The notes: generated by a model not told the origin, from the sequence alone. 64,000 bases of DNA from an uncultured bacterium (GCA_963740635.1 CAVUEQ010000001.1:401026-465025); one strand, 5' to 3'; numbered from the stretch's first letter, positions 2,900 to 54,192 are shown. A program made the numbers and translations.

Positions 2900-4213
2900 T
2901 TAATATTGTTCGTATGAGGTGGTAATGGCCTGGGCCTCGAGTTGCTTGAGGGTCTCAATGGCCACGGATACGACGATCAGCAGGCCGGTGCCGCCGAACG
3001 TCAGCACCTGGCTGTTGGTGAAGGCCTGGGCAATAAACGGCAGCACCGCGATGAAGCCCAACCCGAGAGCGCCGGCCAGGGTAATGCGGTTGACGACGCG
3101 CTTGAGGTAGGTCGCGGTCTGGTTACCGGGACGGATGCCGGGAATGAAGCCGCCCTGCTTTTGGAGGTTTTCGGCAATGTCTTTGGGGTTGAACACGACC
3201 GATGTGTAGAAGAACGTGAAGGCCACGACCAGCACGAAATACGAGACCGCGTAGATCGTGCCGTTGGGCGAGAACCAGGCGGTGAGCAACGACGCGAAAT
3301 GCGACACCCAGGGGGTTTTAGCGCTCGTGAGCACCTGCCCAAGCAACCCCGGAATCGATAGGAACGCCAGCGCGAAGATGATCGGGATAACACCGGCCGT
3401 GATCACGCGCAGAGGCAGATGCGTGTCGACGCCGGCATACACCCGGTCGCCGCGGGTGCGTTTAGCATACGACACCGGAATGTTGCGCGTGCCTTCGTTG
3501 AGCACGACTACGAAAGCTATTACCGCCAGCGTGGCCGCCAGGAAACCAATGAGCGTGACGATTTTGCCGGCGTCACCGGAGGCGAGGCTGGCGAACTGGC
3601 CGGCGCTGGTGGGCAGCCGCGACACAATGCCGCAAAAGATGATGAGCGAAATGCCGTTACCAATCCCCTTCTCGGTGATGATCTCGCCGATCCACATCAG
3701 AAGCATGGTGCCGGCGGTAATGGTAGAGACCATGAGCAGCCACTGGAAGAGGTTGGGGTGGCCGATGACGTCGGTGTTCGCGACCCTGATGGAGGTCTGC
3801 TGAATGAGGAAAACCATCCCAAACGACTGCACGATGGCCAGCGGCAGAGTGAGCAGCCGGGTGTACTGGTTGAGTTTGCGGCGGCCCTGCTCGCCCTCTT
3901 TGGATAGCGCCTCAAAACTTGGCACCACCTGCTGCAGCAACTGCATAATAATGGACGCGTTAATGTATGGGCCCACGCCCATCATGATGATGGAAAAGTT
4001 GGCTAGCGCGCCACCCGAAAAGACGTCGGCAAAGCCGAGGATCTTGTTGGAGTTGAAGATAAATTTAAGAAAGTTGGCCAGCGCCGCGTTGTCCGGGACG
4101 GGCACCGGTACGTGGGCCAGGAACCGGAATACGACTATAAGACCAAGGACAACCAGCACCCTCCGGCGCAGATCCGGGGAACGGTAGACCTGCTTGAGAC
4201 TGCCCCAGTTCAT
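2900..4213 (-). CDS. secY: preprotein translocase subunit SecY
   Basis: 437-aa polytopic membrane ORF with SecY sequence character. Overlaps the rplO stop by 4 nt. Confidence 0.96.
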   Translation of the reverse strand: MNWGSLKQVYRSPDLRRRVLVVLGLIVVFRFLAHVPVPVPDNAALANFLKFIFNSNKILGFADVFSGGALANFSIIMMGVGPYINASIIMQLLQQVVPSFEALSKEGEQGRRKLNQYTRLLTLPLAIVQSFGMVFLIQQTSIRVANTDVIGHPNLFQWLLMVSTITAGTMLLMWIGEIITEKGIGNGISLIIFCGIVSRLPTSAGQFASLASGDAGKIVTLIGFLAATLAVIAFVVVLNEGTRNIPVSYAKRTRGDRVYAGVDTHLPLRVITAGVIPIIFALAFLSIPGLLGQVLTSAKTPWVSHFASLLTAWFSPNGTIYAVSYFVLVVAFTFFYTSVVFNPKDIAENLQKQGGFIPGIRPGNQTATYLKRVVNRITLAGALGLGFIAVLPFIAQAFTNSQVLTFGGTGLLIVVSVAIETLKQLEAQAITTSYEQY

Positions 4214-4824
4214 GCGGCCGGCTCGTCCGCCTTAGGTTCACTGGCCTCGGGCTTCGGCTGGGCCTTGGGCTTGGCCTCGGCTTCGGCCTCGGCTTTGGGG
4301 GCCTTGGCTTCGGACTTGGGAGCCTTCACCTTGGCTTCTTCTGCCGGGGCAGGGCGAGTGGCCTTTTTGCTGGGCCGGCGGACGTACTTTACGATCTCTA
4401 CGGCGCCGCCGGCAGCCTCAACCGCGGTTTTGGCGGACGCACTGACGGCATGGAGCTTGAGCATGAGCTTCTTGGTGATCTCGCCTTTGCCGAGCAGTTT
4501 GACCCGGCCGTTGGCATCGGTAATGAGGCCGGCGGTGGCCAGGGCAGCAGCGTCGAGAGTGCTGCCGGCCTTGAAGCGGTCGAGACCAGCGAGGTTGAAC
4601 ACCTGGTACTCAACCCGCGATACCGGCGCGAAGCCGCGCTTCTTGGGGAGGCGCTTGGCGAGCGGGTTCTGGCCGCCCTCGAAACCGGGGCGCACGCCGC
4701 CGCCGGTGCGGGCGTTTTGGCCCTTGGTGCCGCGGCCGGCGGTCTTGCCGTAGCCCGAGCCGATACCGCGCCCAACGCGCTTGCGGTCTTTGGTGCTTTC
4801 GAGATTGAGTTCGTGGATTTTCAT
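4210..4824 (-). CDS. rplO: 50S ribosomal protein L15 with long K/A/E/P-rich C-terminal tail
   Basis: 204-aa ORF. The uL15 core (RVGRGIGSGYGKTAGRGTKGQ) is followed by about 55 aa of low complexity (AKVKAPKSEAKAPKAEAEAEAKPKAQPKPEA). Confidence 0.95.
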   Translation of the reverse strand: MKIHELNLESTKDRKRVGRGIGSGYGKTAGRGTKGQNARTGGGVRPGFEGGQNPLAKRLPKKRGFAPVSRVEYQVFNLAGLDRFKAGSTLDAAALATAGLITDANGRVKLLGKGEITKKLMLKLHAVSASAKTAVEAAGGAVEIVKYVRRPSKKATRPAPAEEAKVKAPKSEAKAPKAEAEAEAKPKAQPKPEASEPKADEPAA

Positions 4825-4834
4825 GGGGTGGTCC

Positions 4835-5335
4835 TTAGGCGGCTGCTGCGGCCGGTTCCTTCTTGGCTTGTCTTACGTTGCGGTCCGGCGTGGCCTTGAG
4901 GCGCGACAGGGCCAATGCAGTAGCGTAAGCGTTGTTTACTTTATTACTGGAGCCGAGGGATTTGGTCAACAGGTCGTGGATGCCGGCCACCTCCACCACG
5001 TTGCGGACGGCGCCGCCGGCAATAACGCCGGTACCGGCCGAGGCGGGCTTGAGCAGCACGATAGCGCCGGCGAACCGCACCTGGACCTCGTGCGGGATGG
5101 TGTTGCCTTTGAGGGGCACAGTGATCATGTCGGCTTTGGCGCGCGAGACGGCCTTGGCGATGCTGGTCATCACCTCGGAGCCTTTGCCCACGCCCACGCC
5201 GACGCGGCCTTTGCCGTCGCCGACCACCACAGTGGCTCGGAAACGGAAGCGGCGGCCGCCCTTGACCACGCGGGCCACGCGGTCGATGGCTATCACCTTC
5301 TCTTCAAATTCTTTGGGCTGCTGTTCGATAGCCAT
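4835..5335 (-). CDS. rpsE: 30S ribosomal protein S5
   Basis: 166-aa ORF, uS5 core ([25 protein letters not shown]). Confidence 0.96.
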
Positions 5336-6227: not shown

Positions 6228-6614
6228 CTACCACACCTTACAGATTAGTTCGCCGCCGAGGCCTTTTTTGCGGGCATCGCGGCCGGTCATGATGCCGCTC
6301 GAGGTACTGACAATCACCAAACCCCGGCCGCCGAGAACCAACGGGATGTCCTGGGCGCTGGTGTAAACGCGGCGGCCCGGCTTAGATACGCGGATCAGCG
6401 ACGTGATGGTTTCGGGGTTGGCCGGCAGTGCGAGCTCGAGCGACTTGAAACCGCCGGCCTCAGTGGTTTTGACGCCTTCCAGGAACCCGGCCTGCGCCAG
6501 GATTTCGGCCACCTGGGCCTTGAGCTTGGAGTGAGGCATTACCACCACGCGCTTGTGCGCCGTGTTGGCGTTGCGGATGCGGGTGAGGAGATCGGAAATT
6601 GAATCGTTAAACAT
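6228..6614 (-). CDS. rpsH: 30S ribosomal protein S8
   Basis: 128-aa ORF, uS8 (DSISDLLTRIRNA...GGELICKVW). Confidence 0.95.
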   Translation of the reverse strand: MFNDSISDLLTRIRNANTAHKRVVVMPHSKLKAQVAEILAQAGFLEGVKTTEAGGFKSLELALPANPETITSLIRVSKPGRRVYTSAQDIPLVLGGRGLVIVSTSSGIMTGRDARKKGLGGELICKVW

Positions 6615-6811: not shown

Positions 6812-7356
6812 CAGGCAGTCCTCCTAAAGGGAAATCCCATTAACTGTAGCAGCCGCTTACTTTCTTCCGGGGTCTTGGCGGTGGTCACAATGTTGACCTG
6901 CAGACCGTGGCTGGCGCCAACCTCCTCGAAGGGAATCTGCGGGAAAATGCTGTGGTCGGGCAGACCGAGGCTGTAATTGCCGTGCGGGTCGAAAGCGGTG
7001 TCCGAGAGGCCGTGGAAGTCGCGGATGCGCGGCAGCACGACGCTTATCAGCTGGTCCAGGAACTCCTCGGCCCGAGTGCCGCGCAAGGTGACCGTGGCGC
7101 CGACCTTATTGCCCTCACGGACCTTGAACGCGGCGATGCTCTTGCGGGCCACGGTGGTCACCGGGTGCTGGCCCGTGACTTTGGCGAGTGTATCGGCAGC
7201 TGTGTCGAGGTGCTTGGTGTCACTGACGGCACGGCCCACGCCGGAACTCACCACGACCTTGAGGATCTTCGGAACCTGGTGCGGATTGGCGTAGCTAAAC
7301 TCGCTGCGGAGGGCGGGTACGGCGGTCTTTACGTATTTTTCGGTGAATCTATTCAT
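6811..7356 (-). CDS. rplE: 50S ribosomal protein L5
   Basis: 181-aa ORF, uL5. Position in the spc cluster. Confidence 0.95.
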
Positions 7357-11545: not shown

Positions 11546-12177
11546 TATTTCTCTCCCAACCACGAATTAATAACTGCGAGCGCCTTTTCGGTAACGACGA
11601 TTTTGTCGGCGTTCATAACGTCGTAAACATTGAGGTAGTTGGCCTGGACGGTCTTGAGGCCGGCGATGTTGCGGGTGGCGCGCTCGATGAGGTCGGTCTT
11701 GGCTTCGACGGCCAGGAGCAGATTGCCGCTAAGGCCCATCTTGCCCAGTAACTGGACGGTGGACTTCACTTTGCCCTCGGTGTCGAAGGTTTCGAGCACC
11801 ACGATGTCGCCGGCGGCGGCGCGCAGGCTCAGCGCCCCGCGGATGGCCGCGCGCTTCATGCGCACCGGCAAGGTGAGCTGGTGGTTTTCGTTGCCGGTGG
11901 GGCCAAACACCACGCCGCCGCCGCGCCAGTTGGGTACGCGGATGGAGCCGACGCGCGCGCGGCCCGTGCCTTTTTGGCGCCAGGGCTTCTTGCCGCCGCC
12001 GCGCACCAGCCCGCGGGTGAGGGTGCTAGGACCGGCTACCCGGCCGGCCGCCAGATAGGTGCGGTAGGCTTGAGCGACCAGCTCGTGGTTGGCTTCCACG
12101 CCAAACACCGCGGTGTCCAAGGTGTGGCCGGTTTCGCGGGCGGCGCCGGCTTTGGTGTAAGCGGTTACGGATTTCAT
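11545..12177 (-). CDS. rplD: 50S ribosomal protein L4
   Basis: 210-aa ORF, uL4 (KPWRQKGTGRARVGS). Confidence 0.96.
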   Translation of the reverse strand: MKSVTAYTKAGAARETGHTLDTAVFGVEANHELVAQAYRTYLAAGRVAGPSTLTRGLVRGGGKKPWRQKGTGRARVGSIRVPNWRGGGVVFGPTGNENHQLTLPVRMKRAAIRGALSLRAAAGDIVVLETFDTEGKVKSTVQLLGKMGLSGNLLLAVEAKTDLIERATRNIAGLKTVQANYLNVYDVMNADKIVVTEKALAVINSWLGEK

Positions 12178-12833
12178 GCGGTGCCTCGGACCATTACGAG
12201 CCCGCGCTTGGGACCAGGCACGGCGCCCGAGATGGCCAGCACACCGAGCGCCGGGTCTACCACGACCACCTTGAGGCCCTTAACGGTGACCTGGTCGTGG
12301 CCCATGTGGCCGGCCATGCGCAGGCCCTTGAAGACATGCTCCGGATAACCCGAGCCGATGGAGCCGTGGGCGCGATAGTTGTGCGAACCGTGGGTCTTGG
12401 GTCCGCGGGCGAAATTGTGGCGCTTAATGGTGCCGGCAAAGCCCTTGCCCTTCGAAGTAGCCGTGACTTCCACCGGGTCGCCGGCCTCAAAAGCAGTGAC
12501 GTCGAGCGTGGCGCCCACTTCCAGCGCCATGGCCTCGGCGACGGCGGCTTCGCGGGCTTTGGCGGCGGGGTGGCCGGCCTCCACGTCCTTAATGCGGAAT
12601 TCGCGCATGGTGCGCGCATTTGAGCCGGAGGCCTTGAGGTGGCCAGCTTGTGGCTTGGGCTGATGCTTGGCCTCGCCAAAACCGAGCTGGACGGCATTAT
12701 AGCCGTCCTTGTCGCTGGTCTTGACCTGCGTGACCACGCACGGGCCGGCCTGAATAAGCGTCACGCGAGCGACGTTGCCGGACTCGTCGAAGAGTTGAGT
12801 CATGCCAAGTTTTGTTCCGAGAATCGCCTTCAT
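12174..12833 (-). CDS. rplC: 50S ribosomal protein L3
   Basis: 219-aa ORF, uL3 (GTKLGMTQLF...KGKGFAGTIKRHNF). Confidence 0.96.
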   Translation of the reverse strand: MKAILGTKLGMTQLFDESGNVARVTLIQAGPCVVTQVKTSDKDGYNAVQLGFGEAKHQPKPQAGHLKASGSNARTMREFRIKDVEAGHPAAKAREAAVAEAMALEVGATLDVTAFEAGDPVEVTATSKGKGFAGTIKRHNFARGPKTHGSHNYRAHGSIGSGYPEHVFKGLRMAGHMGHDQVTVKGLKVVVVDPALGVLAISGAVPGPKRGLVMVRGTA

Positions 12834-12946
12834 TCAAGCCCTACTTACATAAATAAACCCTAGGCAATGGTGGTTTCCCCTAGGCTCGGGGACCTGCCGC
12901 TTCCTAGTCTATTGGCACGCACGCGCGTGACGCGAAATACCATGTG

Positions 12947-12976
12947 ACTATAGCGTATCTGACGCTTGGCTGTCAA
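12947..12976 (-). promoter_or_regulatory. near-consensus promoter for rplC and the downstream ribosomal genes
   Basis: Minus strand reads TTGACA (12971-12976), 18 nt, TATAGT (12947-12952). Overlaps the 3' end of the upstream membrane-protein gene. Implies a leader of about 105 nt. Confidence 0.55.
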
Positions 12977-13373
12977 CAGGTGCGGGCGGGGTTTGGCCGC
13001 CGCCGCGCCGGGTAAGTTGGGCCAGCTCTTCGCCAAGGGCGCCGTTCATTAATATGAGGCCGGAGATGGTGAGGGTGGCGGCCACTGCGTACGAGGCCAG
13101 CCAGCGGAAATCCTGAACAAACAAACGCCGTTCCGTGATGACTGGTATGAGCACGAAAATGGCCGCGAAATTGCTCATCCACCACCCGATCAAGAAGCCT
13201 CGCGGGCGCTTTAACGGATGCTGCTTGGACAATTCGCGGACCCGCAAAAACCGCCTGGTGACGCGCCAGTTCAGATACAAAATTACCGGCAGGGGCAAAT
13301 TTCCGAGAATGAAGATCCACACATAAGTACTATACCCAGTACCTATGAGATATCCAGCATTGACAAAACGCAT
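12948..13373 (-). CDS. hypothetical integral membrane protein
   Basis: 141-aa ORF with about 4 hydrophobic helices. No recognised family. Confidence 0.55.
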   Translation of the reverse strand: MRFVNAGYLIGTGYSTYVWIFILGNLPLPVILYLNWRVTRRFLRVRELSKQHPLKRPRGFLIGWWMSNFAAIFVLIPVITERRLFVQDFRWLASYAVAATLTISGLILMNGALGEELAQLTRRGGGQTPPAPVDSQASDTL

Positions 13374-13415
13374 ATTCTGTGTTGATATGCATTATTCTTG
13401 ATTTTGGAGATTTTC

Positions 13416-13601
13416 ATGAACCCCAGCTCCACGGCACAGCGCATCGGATCGCTGCTGGCCATCACCATTGGCATCACCATCGCCGACAGCTACGTGCCGC
13501 ACGAACTTACGCTTGTGCGGCAACTGCTGGCGATAGTTCAACTTGGCTTGATGGCCGCGATTGTGGTCCTGACGCTAGGTTCGCTACTGCGCGACTTCTA
13601 A
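13416..13601 (+). CDS. hypothetical small membrane protein (61 aa)
   Basis: GGAG is 8 nt before the ATG at 13416. Two hydrophobic helices. Its stop abuts the stop of the convergent gene. Confidence 0.45.
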   Translation: MNPSSTAQRIGSLLAITIGITIADSYVPHELTLVRQLLAIVQLGLMAAIVVLTLGSLLRDF

Positions 13602-13859
13602 CTAAAACCAAATGCTTAGGGGCGCGATGGCGCCAAACAGCCCGATGATAGCGCCCACGATCATCACCGCATACTCGATTTTGCGGTCGATGGCGAAGTG
13701 GTCGTGCTGAGCTACAATAAGTCCGACGACCAGGCCTCCTGGAATTAACGGGAGGCCGTTGATTTTGATCCAACATAGTCCCAGCGTCAGGAAGACGAGA
13801 ATTTTCAGGAAATAGGCGTTGTCGGATTCCCGGGCGCTGGTTTTGCGGACTTTACTCAT
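13602..13859 (-). CDS. hypothetical small membrane protein (85 aa)
   Basis: Two to three hydrophobic helices. Start lies 6 nt after TGgTTTAAT (13866-13874). Confidence 0.5.
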   Translation of the reverse strand: MSKVRKTSARESDNAYFLKILVFLTLGLCWIKINGLPLIPGGLVVGLIVAQHDHFAIDRKIEYAVMIVGAIIGLFGAIAPLSIWF

Positions 13860-13971
13860 GCGCGTATTAAACCATAAGCGTGATGCAGGTGCAATGGGTG
13901 GCTTTGACTTCTAAGGCAGGTGGGTCTTTCCGAGCGTTTTGGATGATACTACTTTCGCAAAAATAGATACT

Positions 13972-13999
13972 TTTTGCACCTATTCCTTTTGCACCTATT
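13972..13999. repeat. tandem direct repeat, 2 x TTTTGCACCTATT
   Basis: Identical 13-mers at 13972-13984 and 13987-13999 (period 15), next to a GCAAAAA/TTTTTGC hairpin. Confidence 0.6.
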
Positions 14000-14034
14000 T
14001 GATGGTAGTTGATTCGCCAAAAAAGTAATCAGGC

Positions 14035-14067
14035 CCGCCGCACCCTCCAGTTGGAGAGATGCGGCGG
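14035..14067 (-). terminator. GC-rich hairpin ending the rarA operon
   Basis: CCGCCGCA (14035-14042) pairs with TGCGGCGG (14060-14067), with an inner CTCC/GGAG stem. The T-run on the minus strand is about 10 nt away, so it is not canonical. Confidence 0.45.
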
Positions 14068-14094
14068 ACCCTTGGTCCGGGTGGGCGTGCCGGT

Positions 14095-14208
14095 CTAGTC
14101 GCCGACCGGGCCGAAGAGGAAGACGAGGACACCGGCGACGACGACGCCGACGACAGCGAGGAACGACTTCCCCTTGTTCTCCTTGACCACCTTCGGTACG
14201 ACGGACAT
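14095..14208 (-). CDS. 37-aa single-pass membrane micro-protein (hypothetical)
   Basis: Not in the ORF track. GGAAGGA Shine-Dalgarno 8 nt before the ATG. Reads MSVVPKVVKENKGKSFLAVVGVVVAGVLVFLFGPVGD, followed by the hairpin at 14035-14067. Confidence 0.4.
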   Translation of the reverse strand: MSVVPKVVKENKGKSFLAVVGVVVAGVLVFLFGPVGD

Positions 14209-14280
14209 GGCGTAGTTCCTTCCGGACGAGAGCAGGTCACTTGCCTACTCGACTGTGGCACCGGGTTCGGGCCGGGAAAA

Positions 14281-15498
<1,218 letters not shown>

Positions 15499-15531
15499 GT
15501 ATTCACTATAACCGCCGCGGCGCCAGATATG

Positions 15532-16116
15532 CTAGAAGTTCAGGATGCGCGTGCGGCCAGGCTCGACGATGGCAAAGGTCTGGTGGGCGCCGACGGTGGC
15601 CGGCCACCGCAATTTGGTGGAAGCTAAACATTCTTTGGCCAACTCCACCAGCTCGCCGGCGCTTGAGCTGCTGAGATCGCTGCCGGCCAGCACTTCCTTG
15701 GCAGCGGCAGTGGAGCCGGCGAGGGCCGAGCTTTCTATTACCGGCTTGAGGTAAAAATCCTGCGCACTGTCCAGGTAATAAATCCCGGGTTCGTCGGTGT
15801 GGCGGACGGGGTCGATGCCCGCCACGATAATTTCGACCCGGCCGGTCATTTGGCCCAGGTGCGGCACGAGATCGAGAACCAGCGCCGCCTGGATAAGCTG
15901 CGCCAGCTCGGCCGGGCTGGTGGTAGCCGTGAGGGCAGGCACCACCTTTTCCATGACCGGACGCCGCACCGCCTCCAGATTGCCGGCCACTAGCAGGATC
16001 GCGCGCCCGGGCACATTCATAAATTGTCCGAACTTAAGGGTGCCGTCGGGGATCGAGGCTACATCGCTGGCAGCCACCACGCAGTCGCGGTTTTTGAGAG
16101 CAAGGATTAATGGCAT
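15532..16116 (-). CDS. proteasome beta-subunit-like (Ntn-hydrolase fold) protein lacking the Thr1 nucleophile
   Basis: Start set at the internal ATG 16114-16116 (MPLILALKNRDCVVAASD...), 4 nt after the upstream stop. Block pattern matches 20S beta/HslV (ILALK..D.VVAASD, ILLVAGN, IIVAGID, ALAGST). Pro occupies the Thr1 position. Confidence 0.5.
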   Translation of the reverse strand: MPLILALKNRDCVVAASDVASIPDGTLKFGQFMNVPGRAILLVAGNLEAVRRPVMEKVVPALTATTSPAELAQLIQAALVLDLVPHLGQMTGRVEIIVAGIDPVRHTDEPGIYYLDSAQDFYLKPVIESSALAGSTAAAKEVLAGSDLSSSSAGELVELAKECLASTKLRWPATVGAHQTFAIVEPGRTRILNF

Positions 16117-16120
16117 GCGG

Positions 16121-16783
16121 CTATTTTGCGCGCTGAGCGAACTTGCCGTCAATGGCCGCAATGGCGGTCGTGAGTGAGGAATCGAGCTGGCCGTCGAGCA
16201 GGCGGGCCTCGGCGATAAGCTGCTCCGGGTTGCCGGGGCCGGCGCTGCTGCTGGGGGCATATTTGGCTTCATAGGCCAGGGTTTCGAGGTGGGTGGCCTG
16301 GTCGAGCCAGTAATAGGCCGTGGCGATCACGCCCAGCAGGCGGGCGTCTTGCATCACGAACAGCCGGCCCGAGGCTTTCACGGAGGTCCAGAACTGCGTG
16401 AGGTAATCAATGCGGGCAAACAGGGTGGTGCTGCCGCGGCGGGCGTCAAACAAGGCTTTGTCTTCGGCCAGCTCTGCCCGGATTTGCTCGAGGATATCGC
16501 GCTCCATCTGGAGCGTGTTGGGGGCTGCGGCCGCGTGGCGGGCCGGCTCGGGGCGCAGCGTGCCAAAAAACAGGCCGACCGGAATGCCGATCATCACGCC
16601 TAACGCGCCTGCCGCCACGCCTGATCCCAGGAAGGCCAGGTAGCTGCCGGCCAGGGCGCCGGCGCTGACCCGGCCAAACAGATAAGCCAGCGGGGCCAGC
16701 AAGGCCAGCACGCCGAGCATAACCCGGCCGCTCAGCCGGAAGCCGCTCCCGGGTGTTTGAGGGGTGATGTCTGGAGTTGCCAT
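16121..16783 (-). CDS. hypothetical membrane protein (N-terminal TM helices plus helical soluble domain)
   Basis: 220-aa ORF. First gene of the operon with the proteasome-like gene and rarA. Confidence 0.55.
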   Translation of the reverse strand: MATPDITPQTPGSGFRLSGRVMLGVLALLAPLAYLFGRVSAGALAGSYLAFLGSGVAAGALGVMIGIPVGLFFGTLRPEPARHAAAAPNTLQMERDILEQIRAELAEDKALFDARRGSTTLFARIDYLTQFWTSVKASGRLFVMQDARLLGVIATAYYWLDQATHLETLAYEAKYAPSSSAGPGNPEQLIAEARLLDGQLDSSLTTAIAAIDGKFAQRAK

Positions 16784-16794
16784 AAGAATGCACT

Positions 16795-16823
16795 ATTATA
16801 AGCGCATTTTGACAAATGATCAA
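16795..16823 (-). promoter_or_regulatory. promoter of the membrane / proteasome-like / rarA operon
   Basis: Minus strand reads TTGATC (16818-16823), 17 nt, TATAAT (16795-16800). The ATG is 11 nt after the -10. Confidence 0.5.
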
Positions 16824-16940
16824 TTCTTACTTATAAAGTACTCGGTCGCCGCCTTGAATTCCGGCAGCGCCAAAATTATTGCATGCGTGCGTCGGGTAGT
16901 TGCCCAAAATGGGACAAGCCTACGGAAAATAGCCTCAATT

Positions 16941-16967
16941 TTGAAAACTATTGCCCTAAATGGGCAA
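16941..16967 (-). terminator. intrinsic terminator after rnhA
   Basis: TTGCCC/GGGCAA stem (16951-16967) followed on the minus strand by TAGTTTTC. A degenerate second copy of the hairpin lies at 16900-16917. Confidence 0.45.
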
Positions 16968-17001
16968 CTCCTTCGATGGTGAGCACCCTCACAACAAACC
17001 C

Positions 17002-17466
17002 TTATCCTGTAGTGTCTCGGCCGGCGCGCGCCAGCAGCCCTTGTTTGCGGGCCTCATTGGCCCAATGATCGGCCAGCTCGTTGCCGGGATCATTATTGTG
17101 CCCGCGCACCCACACCAGGACCGCCCGCGACTGGCGATAAAGCTCCACCACCTCCCGCACCAGATCGAGATTTTTGATCTCACCGCCTTTTTTCTTCCAC
17201 CCGTTGCGCTCCCAACCAACGGACCACTTGGTGATCACGTTAATCCAAAATTCCGAATCGGTGTGAATGGCGCAGGGTGCGCCGGCGGCATCCTGAAGCG
17301 CCGCTATCAGCGCCCGGCCCTCCATGCGGATGTTGGTGCTATCGGGGTCGCTCCCGAGGATATGCGGCTTCATGTCGCGAATAACCGCGAACCCGCCGGC
17401 GCCTGGATTGGGCTCGCAGCTGCCATCGGTGTAGTAAATTATGGGATCTGGGCCGGTTTCTGACAT
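17002..17466 (-). CDS. rnhA: ribonuclease HI
   Basis: 154-aa ORF with RNase H motifs (YTDGSC...GAGG, TNIRMEGRA, HTDSE, VRGHNNDPGNELAD). Confidence 0.9.
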   Translation of the reverse strand: MSETGPDPIIYYTDGSCEPNPGAGGFAVIRDMKPHILGSDPDSTNIRMEGRALIAALQDAAGAPCAIHTDSEFWINVITKWSVGWERNGWKKKGGEIKNLDLVREVVELYRQSRAVLVWVRGHNNDPGNELADHWANEARKQGLLARAGRDTTG

Positions 17467-17586
17467 GGGTTAATTTTACACTAAAAGTCGAACGGCCGGC
17501 CCCCTGGAGGGATCAGCCATCGAGGTGCTCGAGTTGCTGCCTATTCCGGGGCTGTAATTTCCGCGCCGCACCGCTACAATCGGGGT

Positions 17587-17841
17587 ATGAATAATGCAGA
17601 TTTAATCCTGTCGGGCGAAGTCATCGAGCAATCCTGTTCCGAGGACCAGGCCGCGGCCTTTCGATCCGCCATCGAGAATCTCATGATTGAAGACCTGGTG
17701 GCGATTAATGATTACCTCAATGCCGGCGTGGCGCCCGACTCGGATTGGCAATCCTATTGGAATGCCTTTGCCAAATTTGAGTGGAAAGACTTCAGCATCG
17801 CCTACCGCCACGTCCTCGACCGCGACTTCAGCTTGGATTAA
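17587..17841 (+). CDS. hypothetical acidic protein (84 aa)
   Basis: ATG lies 6 nt after TACAAT (17575-17580). No recognised domain. Confidence 0.45.
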   Translation: MNNADLILSGEVIEQSCSEDQAAAFRSAIENLMIEDLVAINDYLNAGVAPDSDWQSYWNAFAKFEWKDFSIAYRHVLDRDFSLD

Positions 17842-17878
17842 ACGCCGAGGCAGGCCCCACAGGCTCAAATGTAATCCG

Positions 17879-18292
17879 CTAAATCGCCCGCATCCGGTTC
17901 CCGCGCGGGTTGTGCTCCAGCTCCACCAGCCCCAACGCCTCCATCAGCGGCGGCATGTACATGCCAAACCGACCGCGCAGACCCTTCTTGGTGCCGTACC
18001 AGCCGCCCACCGGATTTTTCGGGTCGCGCGCCCAGGCCTCCACGGTCCCCGCCTTGGCCTCCTTTTGCTCGTCGGCCGCGCCCAATTCCATCCAATCGCC
18101 GTGCGCCTTCAGCATAGCGTGCAAATCCTCAATGGCCCGCGCCAGGTACCCGAGCTTGGTCGAGCCCACCACGCACACAATCATCGCCGGCTCCACCGTC
18201 TTATCCATATACATCTGATACTGCGACGTCCCTGGCGGCGTCGTGAGCTGCCACGGTGATTCTTTGGTGCCGTTGCCTTTTACGTCTGGCAT
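17879..18292 (-). CDS. conserved hypothetical protein (MPDVKGNGTK...GDWMELG...NPVGGWYG family)
   Basis: 137-aa ORF. GAGGAGG Shine-Dalgarno. From memory it resembles a widespread uncharacterised bacterial family. Confidence 0.55.
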   Translation of the reverse strand: MPDVKGNGTKESPWQLTTPPGTSQYQMYMDKTVEPAMIVCVVGSTKLGYLARAIEDLHAMLKAHGDWMELGAADEQKEAKAGTVEAWARDPKNPVGGWYGTKKGLRGRFGMYMPPLMEALGLVELEHNPRGNRMRAI

Positions 18293-18318
18293 GATTTGGA
18301 CCTCCTCGTTACTTGCGC

Positions 18319-18552
18319 TTACTTGATTTTGCTAATCTGTTCGAGATATTCGACGGTATCTATGCCGAGGGTACGCAGATTTGATTTAATGATGAATACG
18401 GGTATCTCCGAGTCCGCCTGAATGATGATGGGCCGCTTCAAATCTTTACGGCCGTAAATAATATGGTCGCCCTTCGTGCGTAAATACTCGCACCCGATGG
18501 AAACTAAAAATTTCTCGAAGCGAGGCCGAGAAATTTCTGTGACTTTGGGCAT
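18319..18552 (-). CDS. hicA: HicA-like mRNA interferase toxin
   Basis: 77-aa ORF. KGDHIIYGR...RPIIIQ...IKSNLRTLGI matches the HicA/YcfA pattern. Confidence 0.7.
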   Translation of the reverse strand: MPKVTEISRPRFEKFLVSIGCEYLRTKGDHIIYGRKDLKRPIIIQADSEIPVFIIKSNLRTLGIDTVEYLEQISKIK

Positions 18553-18559
18553 GCCCCGG

Positions 18560-18868
18560 TTACGCGTAGGTGGGCACGGCGACTTTTATTTCAGAGGGTG
18601 AGTCTTCTACTAACTGCGGCGGCATCCAGGGCGACCTTGCTGTTTTGACCCAACCCAACTCCTCGAGCACTTCGTCAGTCGTGCCTCGTTCGTGAAGATC
18701 CTCGAAGAAGAGCATTACCGCCTCGCCAAACCGTTTTTGGACGTCAGCTTTGCTTTTACCCTGTACGCTCAGCTCGAGCACGGGGGTGTAGGCAATGAAA
18801 TAGTTCCCTTGTTGCATCAGCATCACAGGTAACTTATATTCTAATTTGGCGGCGATTGGTTTGCTCAT
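18560..18868 (-). CDS. hicB: HicB-like antitoxin (UPF0150 N-terminal fold)
   Basis: 102-aa ORF. ...GNYFIAYTPVLELSVQGKSKADVQKRFGEAV... matches the HicB N-domain. Lies 7 nt upstream of hicA. Confidence 0.65.
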   Translation of the reverse strand: MSKPIAAKLEYKLPVMLMQQGNYFIAYTPVLELSVQGKSKADVQKRFGEAVMLFFEDLHERGTTDEVLEELGWVKTARSPWMPPQLVEDSPSEIKVAVPTYA

Positions 18869-18886
18869 GCAGCAATTATAGCTGAG

Positions 18887-19219
18887 TTACATCTTGATTT
18901 CGATGTCGACGCCGGCGGGGAGGTTGAGGTTCATGAGGGCGTCGATGGTCTTGGGGGTGGGCTCGGTGATGTCGATGAGGCGTTTGTGGGTGCGCATTTC
19001 GAACTGCTCGCGGGCGTCCTTGTAGATGTGCGGGCTGCGCAGGACAGTCATGGAGTTCTTCTCGGTAGGCAGCGGAATCGGGCCCGCGACGGTAGCGCCT
19101 GTGCGGGTGGCGGTGTCGATGATTTGTTTGGCGGACTGGTCGATGACTTTGGAGTCATACGCCTTTAGGCGGATACGGATCCGCTGCTTTTCTGGGGCTT
19201 TGACTTCGGCTGTGGCCAT
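18887..19219 (-). CDS. rpsJ: 30S ribosomal protein S10
   Basis: 110-aa ORF ([11 protein letters not shown]...[11 protein letters not shown]). Confidence 0.97.
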
Positions 19220-19282
19220 GGGTAGGTGCTATCTCTTGTTGATCGGTTAATACTAAATACACGCTCACGTGGTGTTGGGTTG

Positions 19283-19312
19283 ATTTAAGCACGGTAATGC
19301 GGTTTTTGTCAA
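19283..19312 (-). promoter_or_regulatory. candidate rpsJ promoter
   Basis: Minus strand reads TTGACA (19307-19312), 18 nt, TGcTTAAAT (19283-19291). Confidence 0.4.
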
Positions 19313-19438
19313 TGTGATGCTGAACATCTCGGTGATTTCGTGGTGTTATTTCCCGATGGATAAATTAGCCTATGGTTTGGGGGCTTTATTTTGGCTCTAG
19401 GACGTTATTTTATTAGTCCTTGATTATTATTGTGGTTA

Positions 19439-19447
19439 TGGTATAAT
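19439..19447 (+). promoter_or_regulatory. extended -10 promoter TGgTATAAT
   Basis: Perfect TGnTATAAT in an AT-rich spacer, about 70 nt before the GTG at 19517. Confidence 0.45.
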
Positions 19448-19516
19448 GGCTTTGTCGGTACCCGCTGACACCCACCCTGGAGCTTCTGCTCCCCTCGTCA
19501 AGATTGGAGTCACGCC

Positions 19517-19720
19517 GTGACCCAGACCCGGATGTCCGTTGAGAGCGCGCTGGCATGGCGCGACCTGGCCGTTACCAAGCTCGACGAAGCACGTGGCAAA
19601 ATCGACCCCAAGGATTGGGGCGAGGACGGCCAGCTCAAAGGGCTGATGAAGGATCTCAACGAAGCCACAGATGCGCTCGGCGAAGCCGAATGGTGGCGAG
19701 ACCACCCCGGCTGTAGCTAG
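19517..19720 (+). CDS. hypothetical 67-aa protein
   Basis: GTG start with GGAG 8 nt upstream. Helical acidic sequence, no recognised domain. Confidence 0.4.
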   Translation: MTQTRMSVESALAWRDLAVTKLDEARGKIDPKDWGEDGQLKGLMKDLNEATDALGEAEWWRDHPGCS

Positions 19721-19795
19721 AGGCATGCAAGGGTGGAAACGCCCGGCCCCTGGGAGTTACGACTTCCATGGGGCTGGGCACCCACTGAATTATTT

Positions 19796-19822
19796 CGCCC
19801 CCGTTTTGGGGGCGTTTTATTT
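19796..19822 (+). terminator. intrinsic terminator
   Basis: CGCCCCC-GTTTT-GGGGGCG stem-loop followed by TTTTATTT. Overlaps the stop of the convergent DUF1345 gene. Confidence 0.65.
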
Positions 19823-20473
19823 GCCGAGACCGGCGACGAGGTTGATGGTGGTGGCGATGATGACAGTACCCAGCAGGTAAGCCAGCAACGCGTGACGCAG
19901 CCCCATGGAGCGGAATTCGCGTGATTTGAGGCTGGTATCGGAGACCTGGTAGGTCATGCCCATGGTGAAAGCGAGGTAGGCGAAATCGGCGTAGACTGGG
20001 GTCTTGGTGTCGCCAAAATCGACGCCGCCGGTGGGAGCGGTGTAATACAACTCGGCGTAGCGCAGCGCGTAGAGTGTGTGGACCATCAGCCATGACGCCA
20101 TCACGCTGATGACGGCGAGGGTGGTGCTGGAGATTTGGGCGCCGCTGGGCGTGCCTTTGGCGTTCACGAGGATGAGCGCCACCGCGCCCAGGCTGGCAAT
20201 GCTGGCCACCAGGAGGATGGCATCCGACACCACGCGCGATGGGTCTTCGCGGGTGGCGTGCTTTTTGACGAGATCGGGGCCGTATTGCGATACCTGGGCC
20301 CAGGTGACGGCCACGAACAGGACGGCGACGGTGTCCCAGGCCACGATGGCGGCTAGCGCGATTGGCGCGGCGCCGGCGGTGAGACCACCCACGGCAATCC
20401 CGGCAACAGCAATTGCAGCTAGCTTCACCCAGGCGCGGGGGACGGATTTTTCGTTGGTGAGCTTTACCGGCAT
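19817..20473 (-). CDS. DUF1345-like integral membrane protein
   Basis: Start set at ATG 20471-20473 (MPVKLTNEK...), 6 nt after TGcTATAAA. The longer track ORF overlaps the upstream gene with junk-like sequence. Confidence 0.65.
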   Translation of the reverse strand: MPVKLTNEKSVPRAWVKLAAIAVAGIAVGGLTAGAAPIALAAIVAWDTVAVLFVAVTWAQVSQYGPDLVKKHATREDPSRVVSDAILLVASIASLGAVALILVNAKGTPSGAQISSTTLAVISVMASWLMVHTLYALRYAELYYTAPTGGVDFGDTKTPVYADFAYLAFTMGMTYQVSDTSLKSREFRSMGLRHALLAYLLGTVIIATTINLVAGLGK

Positions 20474-20488
20474 GATCAATTTATAGCA

Positions 20489-20525
20489 CAAAAAGCAACG
20501 AGCCCGCCCATACGGACGGGTTCGT
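20489..20525 (-). terminator. intrinsic terminator after the shikimate-kinase-like gene
   Basis: 9-bp stem (one mismatch) at 20498-20525, followed on the minus strand by TGCTTTTTG. Confidence 0.5.
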
Positions 20526-20540
20526 CGCGCGTGAGCGGGG

Positions 20541-21143
20541 CTAGAGCAGGTATCCCTCCTTGAGCAGCCAGTTGAAGATGACCCCAGCGACTTCGTCCTC
20601 GACGAGGTTGTCGGTTTCCAGTCGCCAGTCTGCCAGCTCGTCGTAAAACTCAGTGCGCAGGGCGCGGCGGGAGGCCAAGTCATCACGCAGCGTGGTGTGG
20701 CCTTCGAGGAGCGGCCGCCCGGCATCCTCCTGGCTGGTGATGCGGGCGATCAAAACGTCGTCCGCGGCGTCGAGCCATAAGCAGGGGCAGTTCAGGCGCT
20801 TGAGGGCGCGGCGGTTGGCTTTGCGCTTCACTGAGCCGCCCCCGAGGGCGATCACCGCATGCCTGGGGAGGCCCAGGACGACCTTCGTTTCCAGGTCACG
20901 GAAGCGCTCCTCGCCGTAGGTCTTGATGTACTCATCGATTGACATCTTTCGGCCGACTTCGGCTTCGATCAGGCGCTCGACCTCGGTATCAACATCGATG
21001 AAGAGCTCTGGAAGCGGCACGTCGACATGGCGCTCTGCCAGCCATGCCTGGATGATCCTGGCGACCCTGATGCCTACAGTGCCCTTGCCGGCGCCGGGCA
21101 GGCCTTCGAGGTGAAGCCCGGGGAAACTGTCGATGGTTGTCAT
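20541..21143 (-). CDS. aroK: shikimate kinase-like P-loop kinase
   Basis: Walker A GLPGAGKGT, FIDVDTEVE and ALGGGSV blocks as in AroK. Start set at ATG 21141-21143. Confidence 0.55.
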   Translation of the reverse strand: MTTIDSFPGLHLEGLPGAGKGTVGIRVARIIQAWLAERHVDVPLPELFIDVDTEVERLIEAEVGRKMSIDEYIKTYGEERFRDLETKVVLGLPRHAVIALGGGSVKRKANRRALKRLNCPCLWLDAADDVLIARITSQEDAGRPLLEGHTTLRDDLASRRALRTEFYDELADWRLETDNLVEDEVAGVIFNWLLKEGYLL

Positions 21144-21309
21144 GATATGTACCCCAATCTGGATCTCGTGGGAGGATATTGGCTTCACGGTTATACCATA
21201 AAGCTGGCCTGCGGCAAAATGGCGAGCTCCGATCTTAAGCGAAAACTATTTGGTGCTTACGCTTTGCTGAGGGCCTGCGCCCGGCGGGAAGGGTGCGTTC
21301 GCGGGAATC

Positions 21310-21364: not shown

Positions 21365-22550
<1,186 letters not shown>

Positions 22551-24593: not shown

Positions 24594-26685
24594 TTAACCC
24601 GCGGCTTTGGCGGCGGCGCGCTTGCCGATGATCTCTTCGGCGACGTTGCGCGGAACTTCCTCGTAGTGGTCGAATTCCATGGTGTTGCTGCCCCGGCCCT
24701 GGGTCATAGAGCGCAGGGTGGTGGTGTAGCCGAACATTTCGGCCAGGGGTACTTGCGCGTCCACGACCTTCACGCCGGCGCGGTCTTCCATTTTCTCGAC
24801 CCGTCCGCGCTTGGAGTTGAGGTCGCCGATAACGTCGCCCATGAACTCTTCGGGCACCACGACTTCGACTTTCATGATGGGCTCGAGAATGATTGGGTTG
24901 GCCTTTTTGGCCGCGGCCTGGAAGGCCATGGAGCCGGCGATCTTGAAGGCCATTTCGGATGAGTCGACGTCGTGGTAGGAGCCGTCGTAGAGCTTCACCT
25001 TGACGTCGACGATCGGGAAGCCGGCCACCACACCGTTGCCGATGGCCTCTTTCACGCCTTCCTCGGTAGGCTTAATGTATTCGCGCGGGATGATACCGCC
25101 GACGATGGCGTTTTCCCAGACGTAACCCTCGCCGGTTTCGGTGGGGCTGACCTCCACCCAGGCGTCGCCGTACTGGCCGCGGCCGCCGGATTGGCGCACG
25201 AATTTGCCCTGGGCGCTGGCGGTACCCTTAATGGTTTCGCGGTAGGCGACCTGCGGGCGGCCGACGTTGGCCTCCACCTTGAATTCGCGCTTCATGCGGT
25301 CGACCAGGATGTCCAGGTGCAGTTCGCCCATGCCCTCGATGATGGTTTGAGCGGTTTCCTCGTCGGTGTGCACGCGGAAGGTCGGGTCTTCTTCGGCCAG
25401 GCGCTGCAACGCGATGCCCATCTTCTCCTGGTCGGCCTTGGTTTTGGGCTCGACCGCGATCGAAATGACGGGCTCGGGAAAGATGATGCTCTCGAGAATC
25501 ATCGGGTTCTCGACACTGGTAATGGTGTTGCCGGTGGTGGTGTTTTTGAGGCCCACAGCGGCGGCAATGTCGCCGGCGTAGACTTCGGTGATTTCTTCGC
25601 GGGAGTCGGCGTGCATCCGCACCAGGCGGCCGATGCGCTCTTTCTCGCCGGTTGAGGTGTTCAGGATGTAACTGCCGGACTTGAGTGTGCCGGAGTAGAC
25701 GCGGAAGAAGGCCAGCTTGCCGACGAACGGGTCGGTGGCAATCTTGAAGGCCAGGCCGGCAAATGGCTCGGAATCGTCGGGCTTGCGCTCGAATTCGTCG
25801 CCGGTCTTGGGGTCGTGTGCCAAAGACGGAGCCGATGTCGAGCGGGGTGGGCAGGAAGTCGATGACGGCGTCGAGCAGCTTCTCCACGATCACGCCGCGG
25901 CCGTCGCCGCCGGAAACGGCGAAGAACTTGCCCGACAGCACGGACTTGCGGATGGCGGTTTTGAGCTCGCCGGTCGGTGAGCTCTTGGCCCTCCAGGTAT
26001 TTCTCGAGCAGCTCGTCGTCGGCCTCCACGGCCGCTTCGATCAGGTGGTGACGGTAGCTGCTCGGCCTTCTCCATCATGTCGGCGGGGATTTCGCCCTCG
26101 ACCAGCTCGTGGTCGTGGTATTCTTTGTAGGTGTAGGCCTTCATCTCGACGAGGTCGATCACGCCGTTGATGCTCTGCTCGAAGCCGATGGGCAGGTGGA
26201 TGGCAAGGCGCGCTTGGTGAGGCGGTCGTGAATGCTCTCGAGAGACTTGTAGAAGTCGCCGCCGGTCTGGTTGATCTTGTTAATGAAGCAAATGCGCGGC
26301 ACGCCGTACTTGTCGGCCTGGCGCCAGACGGTTTCGGACTCTGCGGCTCCACGCCCATTTTGCCGTCGAACACGGTGACGGCGCCGTCGAGCACGCGCAA
26401 GCTACGCTCCACCTCCACGGTAAAGTCGATGTGGCCGGGCGTGTCGATAATGTTGATGCGCTTGCCCTTCCAGAAGCAGGTCGTGGCAGCGGAGGTGATG
26501 GTGATACCGCGCTCTCGCTCCTGCTCCATCCAGTCCATAGTGGCCTCGCCCTGGTGGACCTCGCCGATCTTGTGGGTCTTGCCGGTTCGGTAAAGGATGC
26601 CCTCGGTGACGGTGGTTTTACCGGCGTCGATGTGGGCAATAATTCCAATGTTTCGGGTGTTTTCGAGCGAATATTCGCGGGCCAT
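24594..26685 (-). pseudogene. fusA: elongation factor G, frame broken by about 5 indels within 25814-26343 (probably sequence errors)
   Basis: EF-G blocks are spread over five overlapping ORFs in three frames, from the N-terminus [25 protein letters not shown] to the C-terminal 409-aa fragment. Confidence 0.9.
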
Positions 26686-40530: not shown

Positions 40531-43882
<3,352 letters not shown>

Positions 43883-54106: not shown

Positions 54107-54192
54107 TGGTGCGGATGAAAGGACTTGAACCTTCACGGGGTTTCCCCCACTAGCTCCTAAGGCTAGCGTGTCTACCATTCCACCACATCCGC
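54107..54192 (-). tRNA. tRNA-Leu (anticodon UAG), class II with long variable arm, CCA encoded
   Basis: Minus strand: GCGGATG acceptor stem, anticodon stem CTAGC/GCTAG with loop CTTAGGA, variable arm GGGGGAAACCCC, T-arm GGTTCAAGTCC, 3' end CATCCGCACCA. Confidence 0.9.

Follow-up and report, generated by a model that had tools for sequence, protein, structure and literature searches.

The junction between rpsJ, encoding ribosomal protein S10, and rplC, encoding L3, is among the most stable gene adjacencies in bacteria. What, then, has become of it in a 64,000-nt stretch of DNA from an uncultured bacterium (GCA_963740635.1 CAVUEQ010000001.1:401026-465025; hereafter the window, from whose first letter all positions are counted), where the two genes lie thousands of base pairs apart, and what controls rplC in the new arrangement? 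A first-pass annotation of the window had described the intervening DNA as a single insertion and had credited rplC with a promoter of its own and with a leader that might serve feedback regulation. Here, we describe the separation as a trait of a whole bacterial lineage and the rplC leader as the carrier of a conserved hairpin whose core resembles the S8 binding site in 16S rRNA. The list of open reading frames (ORFs) defines the locus as follows, with the genes of interest all on the minus strand:

18887-19219, minus strand: rpsJ (S10), 110 aa, without its usual neighbours on either side; located in relatives by tblastn
12834-18886: the gap between rpsJ and rplC, 6053 bp
12174-12833, minus strand: rplC (L3); the same order, with Pfam calls, occurs in loci L167-L179

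These coordinates bear out exactly the separation of 6053 bp given by the first-pass annotation. Among species-representative genomes, the closest match to the encoded S10 came from an uncultured Candidatus Saccharibacteria metagenome-assembled genome (83% identity), and L3 homologues carry the source names Candidatus Saccharimonadia or Saccharimonadales; the host is a member of Candidatus Saccharimonadia (Saccharibacteria, Candidate Phyla Radiation (CPR)). A metagenome scan with L3 as the query yielded 80 loci (L numbers below), ~70 of which stem from other bacteria, and loci with at least 70% identity in S10 and at least 77% in EF-Tu were taken as relatives. The other bacteria had rpsJ–rplC gaps of -1 to 382 bp, the relatives' loci in the same scan had 822-2726 bp in every case, and on longer contigs of closer relatives the gap spans 6.5-10 kb. 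Three further Saccharibacteria genomes (L178, L179 and L180, the last one closed; CP064960.1) were added to the comparison, giving these distances between rpsJ and rplC:

L110: 822 bp
L100: 837 bp
L092: 2028 bp
L096: 2280 bp
L090: 2726 bp
L179: 2.3 kb
L178: 4.2 kb
L169: 6.5 kb
L175: 6.9 kb
L173/L174: 8.8 kb
L167: 9.7 kb
L171/L172: about 10 kb
L180: more than 8 kb

Six contigs from JGI encode an identical S10 (PF00338), and in none of the six is rplC found downstream of rpsJ. The synteny comparison that the first-pass annotation had recommended thus returned the same break in every related Saccharimonadia contig fetched: the separation of rpsJ from rplC characterises the Saccharimonadia lineage as a whole. 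In the literature searched we found no account of this split, nor of a ribosomal-protein leader in Saccharibacteria. As a side observation, the closed, 1.32-Mb genome L180 has no rpsJ within 8 kb upstream of rplC, and the two genes are possibly fully unlinked there.

When the 200 nt upstream of rplC were compared across ten relatives, two conserved features stood out amid otherwise unalignable DNA, namely a promoter-like site and a hairpin. The former was located by a consensus scan:

12976-12947, minus strand: rplC promoter, with a -35 element TTGACA (12976-12971), an 18-nt spacer and a -10 element TATAGT (12952-12947)

Matching the consensus at 11/12 positions, this site is the best within 12000-20000. 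The pattern TTGACA-N18-TAnnnT recurs in 14/14 relatives with enough upstream DNA, mostly with TG before the -10 element, and so combines conserved hexamers with a spacing inside the 16-18 nt of a sigma-70-type promoter. The promoter named in the first-pass annotation is hence present and conserved, as predicted from sequence. In all family-level relatives an opposite-strand gene separates rplC from mem85, a small membrane protein gene of the gap (see below), which makes a dependence of rplC on upstream read-through unlikely.

The second conserved feature lies within the rplC leader of ~107 nt, and comprises a hairpin of ~48 nt that is followed by a U-rich tract. Its parts in the window are:

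12860-12907, minus strand: leader hairpin (RNAfold, covariation, covariance model)
12907-12903 with 12864-12860, minus strand: outer stem P1, 5-7 bp across relatives
12901-12896 with 12871-12866, minus strand: imperfect stem P1b
12895, minus strand: bulged A
G12894:C12872 and G12893:C12873, minus strand: two G-C pairs
A12875 and A12874, minus strand: two-base bulge in the 3' strand
12892-12888 with 12880-12876, minus strand: inner hairpin P2, 5-6 bp across relatives
12849-12857, minus strand: U-rich tract (UUUAUUUAU), 2 nt past the hairpin and 15 nt before the rplC start codon

Folded singly with RNAfold, 10/10 leaders adopted this same architecture (-15.6 to -26.5 kcal/mol). Because plain MAFFT alignments misaligned the stems, we used a structural alignment of 15 distinct leaders made by hand (A7; N-padded, and left unchanged by MAFFT). 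In A7, whose pair counts are inflated in that it was built with the structure in mind, 92.2% of cells were paired (65.7% in shuffles), 17/18 pairs changed on both sides (10.8 in shuffles) and 71 cells held compensatory changes (21.8 in shuffles), with a covariation score of 0.699 as against 0.212 in shuffles and 0.03-0.13 with slid partners. Independent support for the leader structure came from a covariance model built from ten leader sequences (R1), which matched the window and, in eight loci outside its training set, gave exactly one match each (E 4e-9 to 4e-4), located immediately before the rplC start codon. These matches added further compensatory variants of P2 (UCUCC/GGAGA, UCGGC/GUCGA, UCUAG/CUAGA and UCGGU/ACCGA), and no match was obtained in the ~70 loci of other bacteria. 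An Rfam scan of the whole window at gathering thresholds returned tRNA-Leu only, and a permissive scan of 12700-13100 with Rfam 15 (E up to 10) found nothing on the minus strand. In the leader of L180 (7893-7984), the P2 loop carries a 36-nt insertion.

Taken jointly, the lineage-wide split, the promoter belonging to rplC and the structured leader form a description that we regard as very probably correct. A conserved, covarying hairpin with a U-rich tract behind it also agrees with the first-pass suggestion that the leader is a candidate feedback site for a ribosomal protein. The structure differs from the one envisaged there, which invoked two CCTAGG palindromes 13 nt apart pairing with each other. 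Both copies exist (12859-12864 and 12879-12884; the only two in the 64-kb window, both within the rplC leader), but they are 14 nt apart, and the downstream copy pairs instead with CTAGG at 12907-12903 to form P1; pairing of the two copies with each other can be drawn but is not conserved. This CTAGG (12903-12907) is a third, shorter occurrence of the motif in the same leader. The middle CCTAGG (12884-12879) spans the P2 loop and 3' arm and has no counterpart in the closest relative, L087; in the window it could act as an alternative partner for the 3' arm of P1, an option not conserved in L087.

Which protein might such a leader sense? The genes from rplC to secY are packed without gaps and correspond to the S10 operon minus rpsJ, plus the spc operon; judged by this packing, they would form one transcription unit. 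Within the gap-free cluster, downstream of rplC, lies the gene for S8:

6228-6614, minus strand: rpsH (S8), 128 aa, containing the S-T-S tripeptide (VSTSSG); PF00410 at the same position in relatives

Two side observations concern the same cluster. Between rpsE and rplO (4210-5335) no separate rpmD (L30) ORF was noticed, although no direct check was made; this would agree with the absence of L30 known for CPR bacteria. The rpsN gene is of the short, 61-aa form in the window, L169, L171 and L173, and of the long, 89-aa form in L178 and L179.

The core of the leader hairpin resembles helix 21 of 16S rRNA:

12872-12895, minus strand: S8-site-like core, A(595)G(596)G(597)U(598)C(599)...G(639)A(640)A(641)A(642)C(643)C(644), Escherichia coli 16S rRNA positions in brackets

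Helix 21 is the primary S8 binding site, a helix interrupted by seven conserved nucleotides; these form the triples A595-(A596-U644) and (G597-C643)-U641, and while position 641 varies, the invariant A642 stacks on the S-T-S tripeptide of S8 (PMC4176348). The 596:644 pair is A-U in E. coli and C-G in T. thermophilus, and G597-C643 is invariant (PMC4176348). Set against the E. coli sequence (A595-A596-G597-U598-C599 ... G639-A640-U641-A642-C643-U644 in rrsB numbering), the window itself containing no 16S rRNA gene, the leader consensus reads A-G-G-U-C ... G-A-(A/U)-A-C-C. The invariant columns of A7, A17, G19, A44 and C45, coincide with A595, G597, A642 and C643; close to invariant are the first G and the final C, as well as the U-C and G-A with which P2 opens and closes. 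Position by position, the equivalent of 595 (column 17) is an unpaired A in 15/15 leaders of A7, and an A in L178, L179 and L180 as well; at 596:644 (columns 18:46), 14 leaders have G-C and a single one has A-U; 597:643 (columns 19:45) is G-C in 15/15; 598:640 (columns 20:42) is U-A in 14/15, with A-U in L088; 641 (column 43) is A or U; and 642 (column 44), represented in the window by A12874, is A in 15/15.

A descriptor drawn up from the literature on the S8 site matches the leader of the window, at a chance rate of 0.3% for a leader-sized stretch, along with 13/17 other leaders; its background is ~6.7 chance matches per 128 kb. In the 16-20-kb loci L167 and L179, the leader is the sole match on its strand. 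Among other bacteria, in which rpsJ and rplC are adjacent, neither the leader nor S8-like motifs were found. The invariant nucleotides and the bulge geometry fit the S8 site of helix 21, and for this reason we favour S8 over L4, the protein on which the first-pass annotation had modelled its feedback proposal and which is not the best candidate. On balance, our prediction for the ligand of the rplC leader leans toward S8. The descriptor matches a second time within the 3' portion of rplE (6871-6923, minus strand), upstream of rpsN-rpsH; as seven relatives lack a match at this place, it was taken as chance.

As for the read-out, the position of the U-rich tract is telling. Eight of the 14 nt that follow P1 in the window are T, compared with a window mean of 2.5, and only 0.3% of 14-nt windows reach this count; in relatives the tails contain 5-10 T per 14 nt, the background being 2.5-3.6. 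In every leader the tract begins 2-4 nt past P1, in genomes of 40-60% G+C, whereas the distance from the hairpin to the ATG ranges from 21 to 73 nt. The structure thus appears tied to the U tract rather than to the ribosome-binding site, which speaks for transcription attenuation more than for a start site that is occluded directly. Under the mechanism we propose, S8 present in excess over free 16S rRNA would bind the leader; binding would stabilise the irregular hairpin—since the internal loop interrupts it, the stability required for termination could plausibly come from a bound protein—and RNA polymerase would then terminate at the U tract. The outcome would be autogenous attenuation of the whole rplC-secY cluster, the S8 gene included.

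Several observations weigh against this reading, in addition to the inflated pair counts of the hand-made alignment. The S8 descriptor was built after the likeness to helix 21 had been noticed, making the comparison a post hoc one, and in its strict form it fails in 4/17 leaders; beyond the inverted 598:640 pair of L088, the inner stem of L173 has only 3 bp. An unfiltered search of the E. coli rrn operon with R1 and with a 29-position model of the leader core (R2) did not recover helix 21; the top matches (~10 bits, E ~0.6) were non-significant and fell elsewhere or on the wrong strand. A strict core pattern, scanned against E. coli rRNA, did find helix 21 together with one non-native site, which amounts to two matches where 0.47 are expected and is not significant alone. 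Finally, a consensus-based terminator scan did not flag the hairpin, whose stem is interrupted and stands 2-4 nt from the U tract, unlike a textbook intrinsic terminator. Loose motif scans of E. coli rRNA were set aside as too permissive (274 matches).

Considering both sides, we hold the explanation as a whole, that of a split cluster with an S8-sensing, attenuating leader, to be slightly on the probable side. Transcription attenuation as the read-out, predicted from the leaders themselves, comes close to an even call without quite reaching one. More tentative is the general statement that Saccharimonadia may control rplC-secY (~20 genes) by a single 5' S8-sensing transcription attenuator, to which we give somewhat less than an even chance.

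Other interpretations of the leader account for part of the same evidence. It might be a feedback site for L4, as is the E. coli S10 leader, or for L3, acting by attenuation or by a block to translation. The leader heads a cluster that starts with rplC-rplD, its hairpin and U tract resemble the L4-responsive attenuator hairpin of E. coli, precedent had led to L4 being named as ligand for the sole leader candidate published from upstream of rplC, that of Archaeoglobi, and the covariance-model tests described above did not pick out the S8 site in rRNA. The same models, however, had no meaningful match in E. coli 23S rRNA either: the best one reached a non-significant 10 bits at ~997-1035, with G-G at the equivalent of 596:644. 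Rfam, which holds the known ribosomal-protein leaders, gave no match at E up to 10, and the succession of a 1-nt bulge, two base pairs and a 2-nt bulge fits the S8 site, invariant nucleotides included, point by point. We therefore consider L4 or L3 unlikely as the ligand.

An equally improbable alternative holds that the hairpin and U tract work constitutively, as an insulating terminator for transcription arriving from mem141 or mem85 or as a 5' structure that stabilises the long mRNA, and that the S8 likeness is coincidental. In its favour, the window's mem141, which runs in the same direction as rplC, ends just 40 nt before the hairpin, the descriptor has the chance matches noted above, and the covariance models miss helix 21. 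Against this stands that most relatives have an opposite-strand gene as their nearest one upstream, leaving nothing to terminate, and that the element sits downstream of the conserved promoter, and is thus transcribed within the rplC mRNA. The asymmetric internal loop, invariant across genomes of 34% to 55% G+C and down to ~47% identity in L3, would also be superfluous in an element that only terminates or stabilises.

Lastly, S8 or another ribosomal protein could bind the hairpin and act on the translation of rplC or on the decay of its mRNA, in the manner of the E. coli spc operator, instead of on termination. All characterised S8 regulation is translational, the hairpin is atypical as a terminator and the U-rich stretch could serve as a ribosome standby site; yet the hairpin stops 21-73 nt short of the ATG, leaving the ribosome-binding region uncovered, and it is the U tract that is held 2-4 nt past the stem in every leader. 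We rate this possibility as quite unlikely, a touch below the two preceding ones.

Compared with these alternatives, an S8-sensing attenuator remains our preferred reading of the leader, and the question of how the 6053 bp came to lie upstream of it can be taken up from the gap's contents. Listed from rpsJ toward rplC, these are:

18560-18868, minus strand: HicB-like ORF, no Pfam match; window only
18319-18552, minus strand: HicA (PF07927, E 1e-6); window only
17879-18292, minus strand: DUF6855 (Pfam E 2e-69); window and L167
17587-17841, plus strand: acidic ORF, 84 aa; homologues at the same place in relatives
17002-17466, minus strand: rnhA, RNase H (Pfam E 3e-30); window, L167 and L169
16121-16783, minus strand: mem220, membrane protein of 220 aa; window, L167 and L169
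15532-16116, minus strand: prot194, 194-aa ORF; window, L167 and L169
14281-15498, minus strand: rarA/mgsA, MgsA/RarA (Pfam E 5e-51); all six family-level relatives, with L167, L169, L171, L173 and L175 among them
13602-13859, minus strand: mem85, 85-aa two-helix membrane protein; almost every Saccharimonadia locus
13398-13601, plus strand: small membrane ORF, convergent with and abutting mem85; family-level relatives
12948-13373, minus strand: mem141, 141-aa membrane ORF, homologues in L167 (68% identity) and L169 (59%)

The last codons of mem141 overlap the rplC promoter. The start of the 194-aa ORF is probably at 16116, giving 194 aa as in relatives, and not at 16272. Most gene labels of the first-pass annotation agree with this list. 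Pfam matches uphold rnhA and rarA, and the acidic ORF and the three small membrane proteins are genuine genes, given that their homologues recur at the same place in relatives. Of the proposed hicBA pair, HicA is backed by its Pfam match, whereas the HicB partner is an ORF without one. No support was found for a separate micro-ORF in the gap. The gene labelled proteasome-like matches PF00227 only below threshold (E 0.09; 12.8 bits against a cut-off of 22.4) and has no relative among solved structures, and the label was dropped.

What does not hold is the description of the gap as a single 6-kb insertion of 12 unrelated genes. Its gene layers differ in phylogenetic depth: hicBA is absent from all relatives, DUF6855 occurs elsewhere only in L167, and the acidic ORF, rnhA, the 220-aa membrane protein, the 194-aa ORF and rarA follow in identical order in L167 and L169. 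L100 has just mem85 and the small opposite-strand ORF, in this order, between rpsJ and rplC, and contigs with 100% identical S10 carry different genes after rpsJ. The gap is thus graded, with the oldest gene (mem85) beside rplC and the newest (hicBA) beside rpsJ. The marks of a mobile island—repeats, a recombinase, a tRNA target and deviant composition—are missing: no direct or inverted repeats were found at the flanks, the Pfam matches of the window's proteins include no recombinase, and the nearest tRNA is at 54107. The picture that emerges is of genes accumulating slowly at a permissive site immediately downstream of rpsJ, rather than arriving in one insertion.

Deepest in this gradient, mem85 has homologues on the same strand just upstream of rplC in L088-L092, L096, L100 and L167-L175. 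The protein has two predicted membrane spans and an invariant IDRKIEY motif; its 103 database homologues are all annotated as 'hypothetical', and it has no Pfam domain. The adjoining opposite-strand ORF (13398-13601) retains a C-terminal LLREF/ILEDY motif in L167, L169, L171, L173 and L175. Further observations concern the remainder of the gap. The divergent pair of acidic ORF and rnhA is also kept in L001 (6612-7345; 56% and 85% identity), and the acidic ORF has a weaker match in L175. A tandem 15-nt repeat (13967-13996; ATACTTTTTGCACCT / ATTCCTTTTGCACCT) in the non-coding spacer of 420 nt that separates rarA from mem85 may be an operator or promoter element for the latter. A DJ-1/PfpI remnant, considered for the same spacer, showed no similarity.

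A mis-join in the assembly or a single recent mobile-element insertion, for which one could cite the base-level errors of the window (tuf, fusA and rpoB are frameshifted) and the typically accessory nature of hicBA and DUF6855, can be dismissed as extremely improbable, because the same break recurs in more than 15 independent assemblies (JGI, ENA, NCBI and Logan) with a constant order of rarA, mem85, opposite-strand ORF, promoter, leader and rplC—which rejects a mis-join as far as the comparative data reach—and because flanking repeats, an integrase and a tRNA are lacking and the G+C content of the gap (0.52-0.63 per kb) lies within the range of the window. The frameshifts themselves split tuf (21365-22550), fusA (24594-26685) and rpoB (41452-43882). 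In tuf, one extra base was seen near 21636-21640 (GAATTT-C-GACGCC), while the tuf genes of relatives are intact (394 aa); the three frameshifted genes most likely reflect indel errors of the assembly rather than pseudogenes. Such errors touch the reading of single bases in the window, not the gene order.

On its other side, rpsJ is cut off from tuf too. The interval contains two genes, one shikimate-kinase-like (20541-21188) and one for a DUF1345 membrane protein (19817-20725), together with ~600 nt that are non-coding. In more distant Saccharimonadia, unlike in the window's family, tuf still adjoins rpsJ: in L007, L090, L092, L178 and L179, rpsJ follows tuf after 6-30 nt and rplC heads a separate cluster. 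Upstream of rpsJ, an alignment of the window with L001, L169 and L175 revealed a further promoter-like site:

19283-19312, minus strand: rpsJ promoter-like site, TTGACA-N18-TTAAAT

Downstream of it, the same four-sequence alignment shows a small conserved hairpin (CACGUGAGCGUG). In the window's family, rpsJ stands alone with a predicted promoter of its own.

In evolutionary terms, a whole CPR class broke a stable junction and then kept gaining genes there, so that the split is at once a lineage marker and a tolerated insertion site beside a highly expressed gene. Where binning or annotation relies on synteny and takes adjacency of rpsJ and rplC for granted, Saccharimonadia call for a caveat. 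The synteny break as such is descriptive; the conserved leader with its S8 hypothesis is the part worth following up. How ribosomal proteins are kept in balance is little known beyond a few model bacteria, and the leader offers a ligand hypothesis that can be tested by mutation, some CPR bacteria now being cultivable and transformable. If true, this would be the first ribosomal-protein leader described in the CPR and the first S8 operator outside Gammaproteobacteria, an independent invention that unites S8 mimicry with an attenuator like that of the S10 leader, and it may date from the time when rpsJ, with whatever control lay upstream of it, was cut from rplC.

How does this arrangement compare with known systems? 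In cyanobacteria (in str operons), plastids and archaea, rpsJ is found with tuf and not with rplC, an arrangement for which we found no confirmation in the literature searched. The tuf-rpsJ order of L007, L090, L092, L178 and L179 resembles this unconfirmed cyanobacterial layout. Saccharimonadia differ from it in that the rpsJ and rplC loci are only 0.8-10 kb apart, with an interval that is filling with accessory genes, and the window's family departs further by having split rpsJ from tuf too.

With the spc operator of E. coli, the leader shares the proposed ligand S8 and the principle of an mRNA that mimics the helix 21 loop within an operon encoding S8; the listed determinants of the S8 site (595, 596:644, 597-643, 598-640, 641 and 642) are all present in the leader. 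The spc operator is internal, at the start of rplE, whereas the Saccharimonadia leader occupies the 5' end of its cluster, upstream of rplC. The strand topology of the leader is that of helix 21, which has a closing hairpin and the 595 side placed 5'; the spc mRNA has the opposite order, A+80 and A+81 with U+11 (PMC4176348). The 596:644 equivalent, mostly G-C in the leaders, also differs from the spc system, and the leader has a U tract that the spc operator lacks, suggesting attenuation and not a translational block. According to a 2024 review, S8 control has not been traced beyond Gammaproteobacteria.

The other obvious counterpart is the S10 leader of E. coli, where L4, with NusA, is thought to stabilise the attenuator hairpin for termination and where translation is controlled as well. 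Both leaders head the genes for L3-L4-L23-L2 with a hairpin and then a U tract. The Saccharimonadia leader lies upstream of rplC, the E. coli leader upstream of rpsJ; the former consists of one composite hairpin of ~48 nt plus a variable 5' hairpin, the latter of five hairpins; and the core of the former resembles a 16S rRNA site and not 23S rRNA domain I. The two have no sequence relation. They also belong to different lineages, CPR and Gammaproteobacteria. Upstream of rpsJ itself, the window has no E. coli-type S10 leader (hairpins HA-HG), only the promoter-like site and small hairpin described above. The Archaeoglobi candidate for an L4 leader (Eckert and Weinberg 2020), the sole published one upstream of rplC-rplD-rplW-rplB, is archaeal and unrelated in structure to the Saccharimonadia leader, its ligand having been assigned by precedent only. 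By analogy, the rplC leader may be likened to an autoregulatory leader of a ribosomal protein, with a ligand logic nearest to the spc operator and a layout nearest to the S10 attenuator; it belongs to the sequence family of neither.

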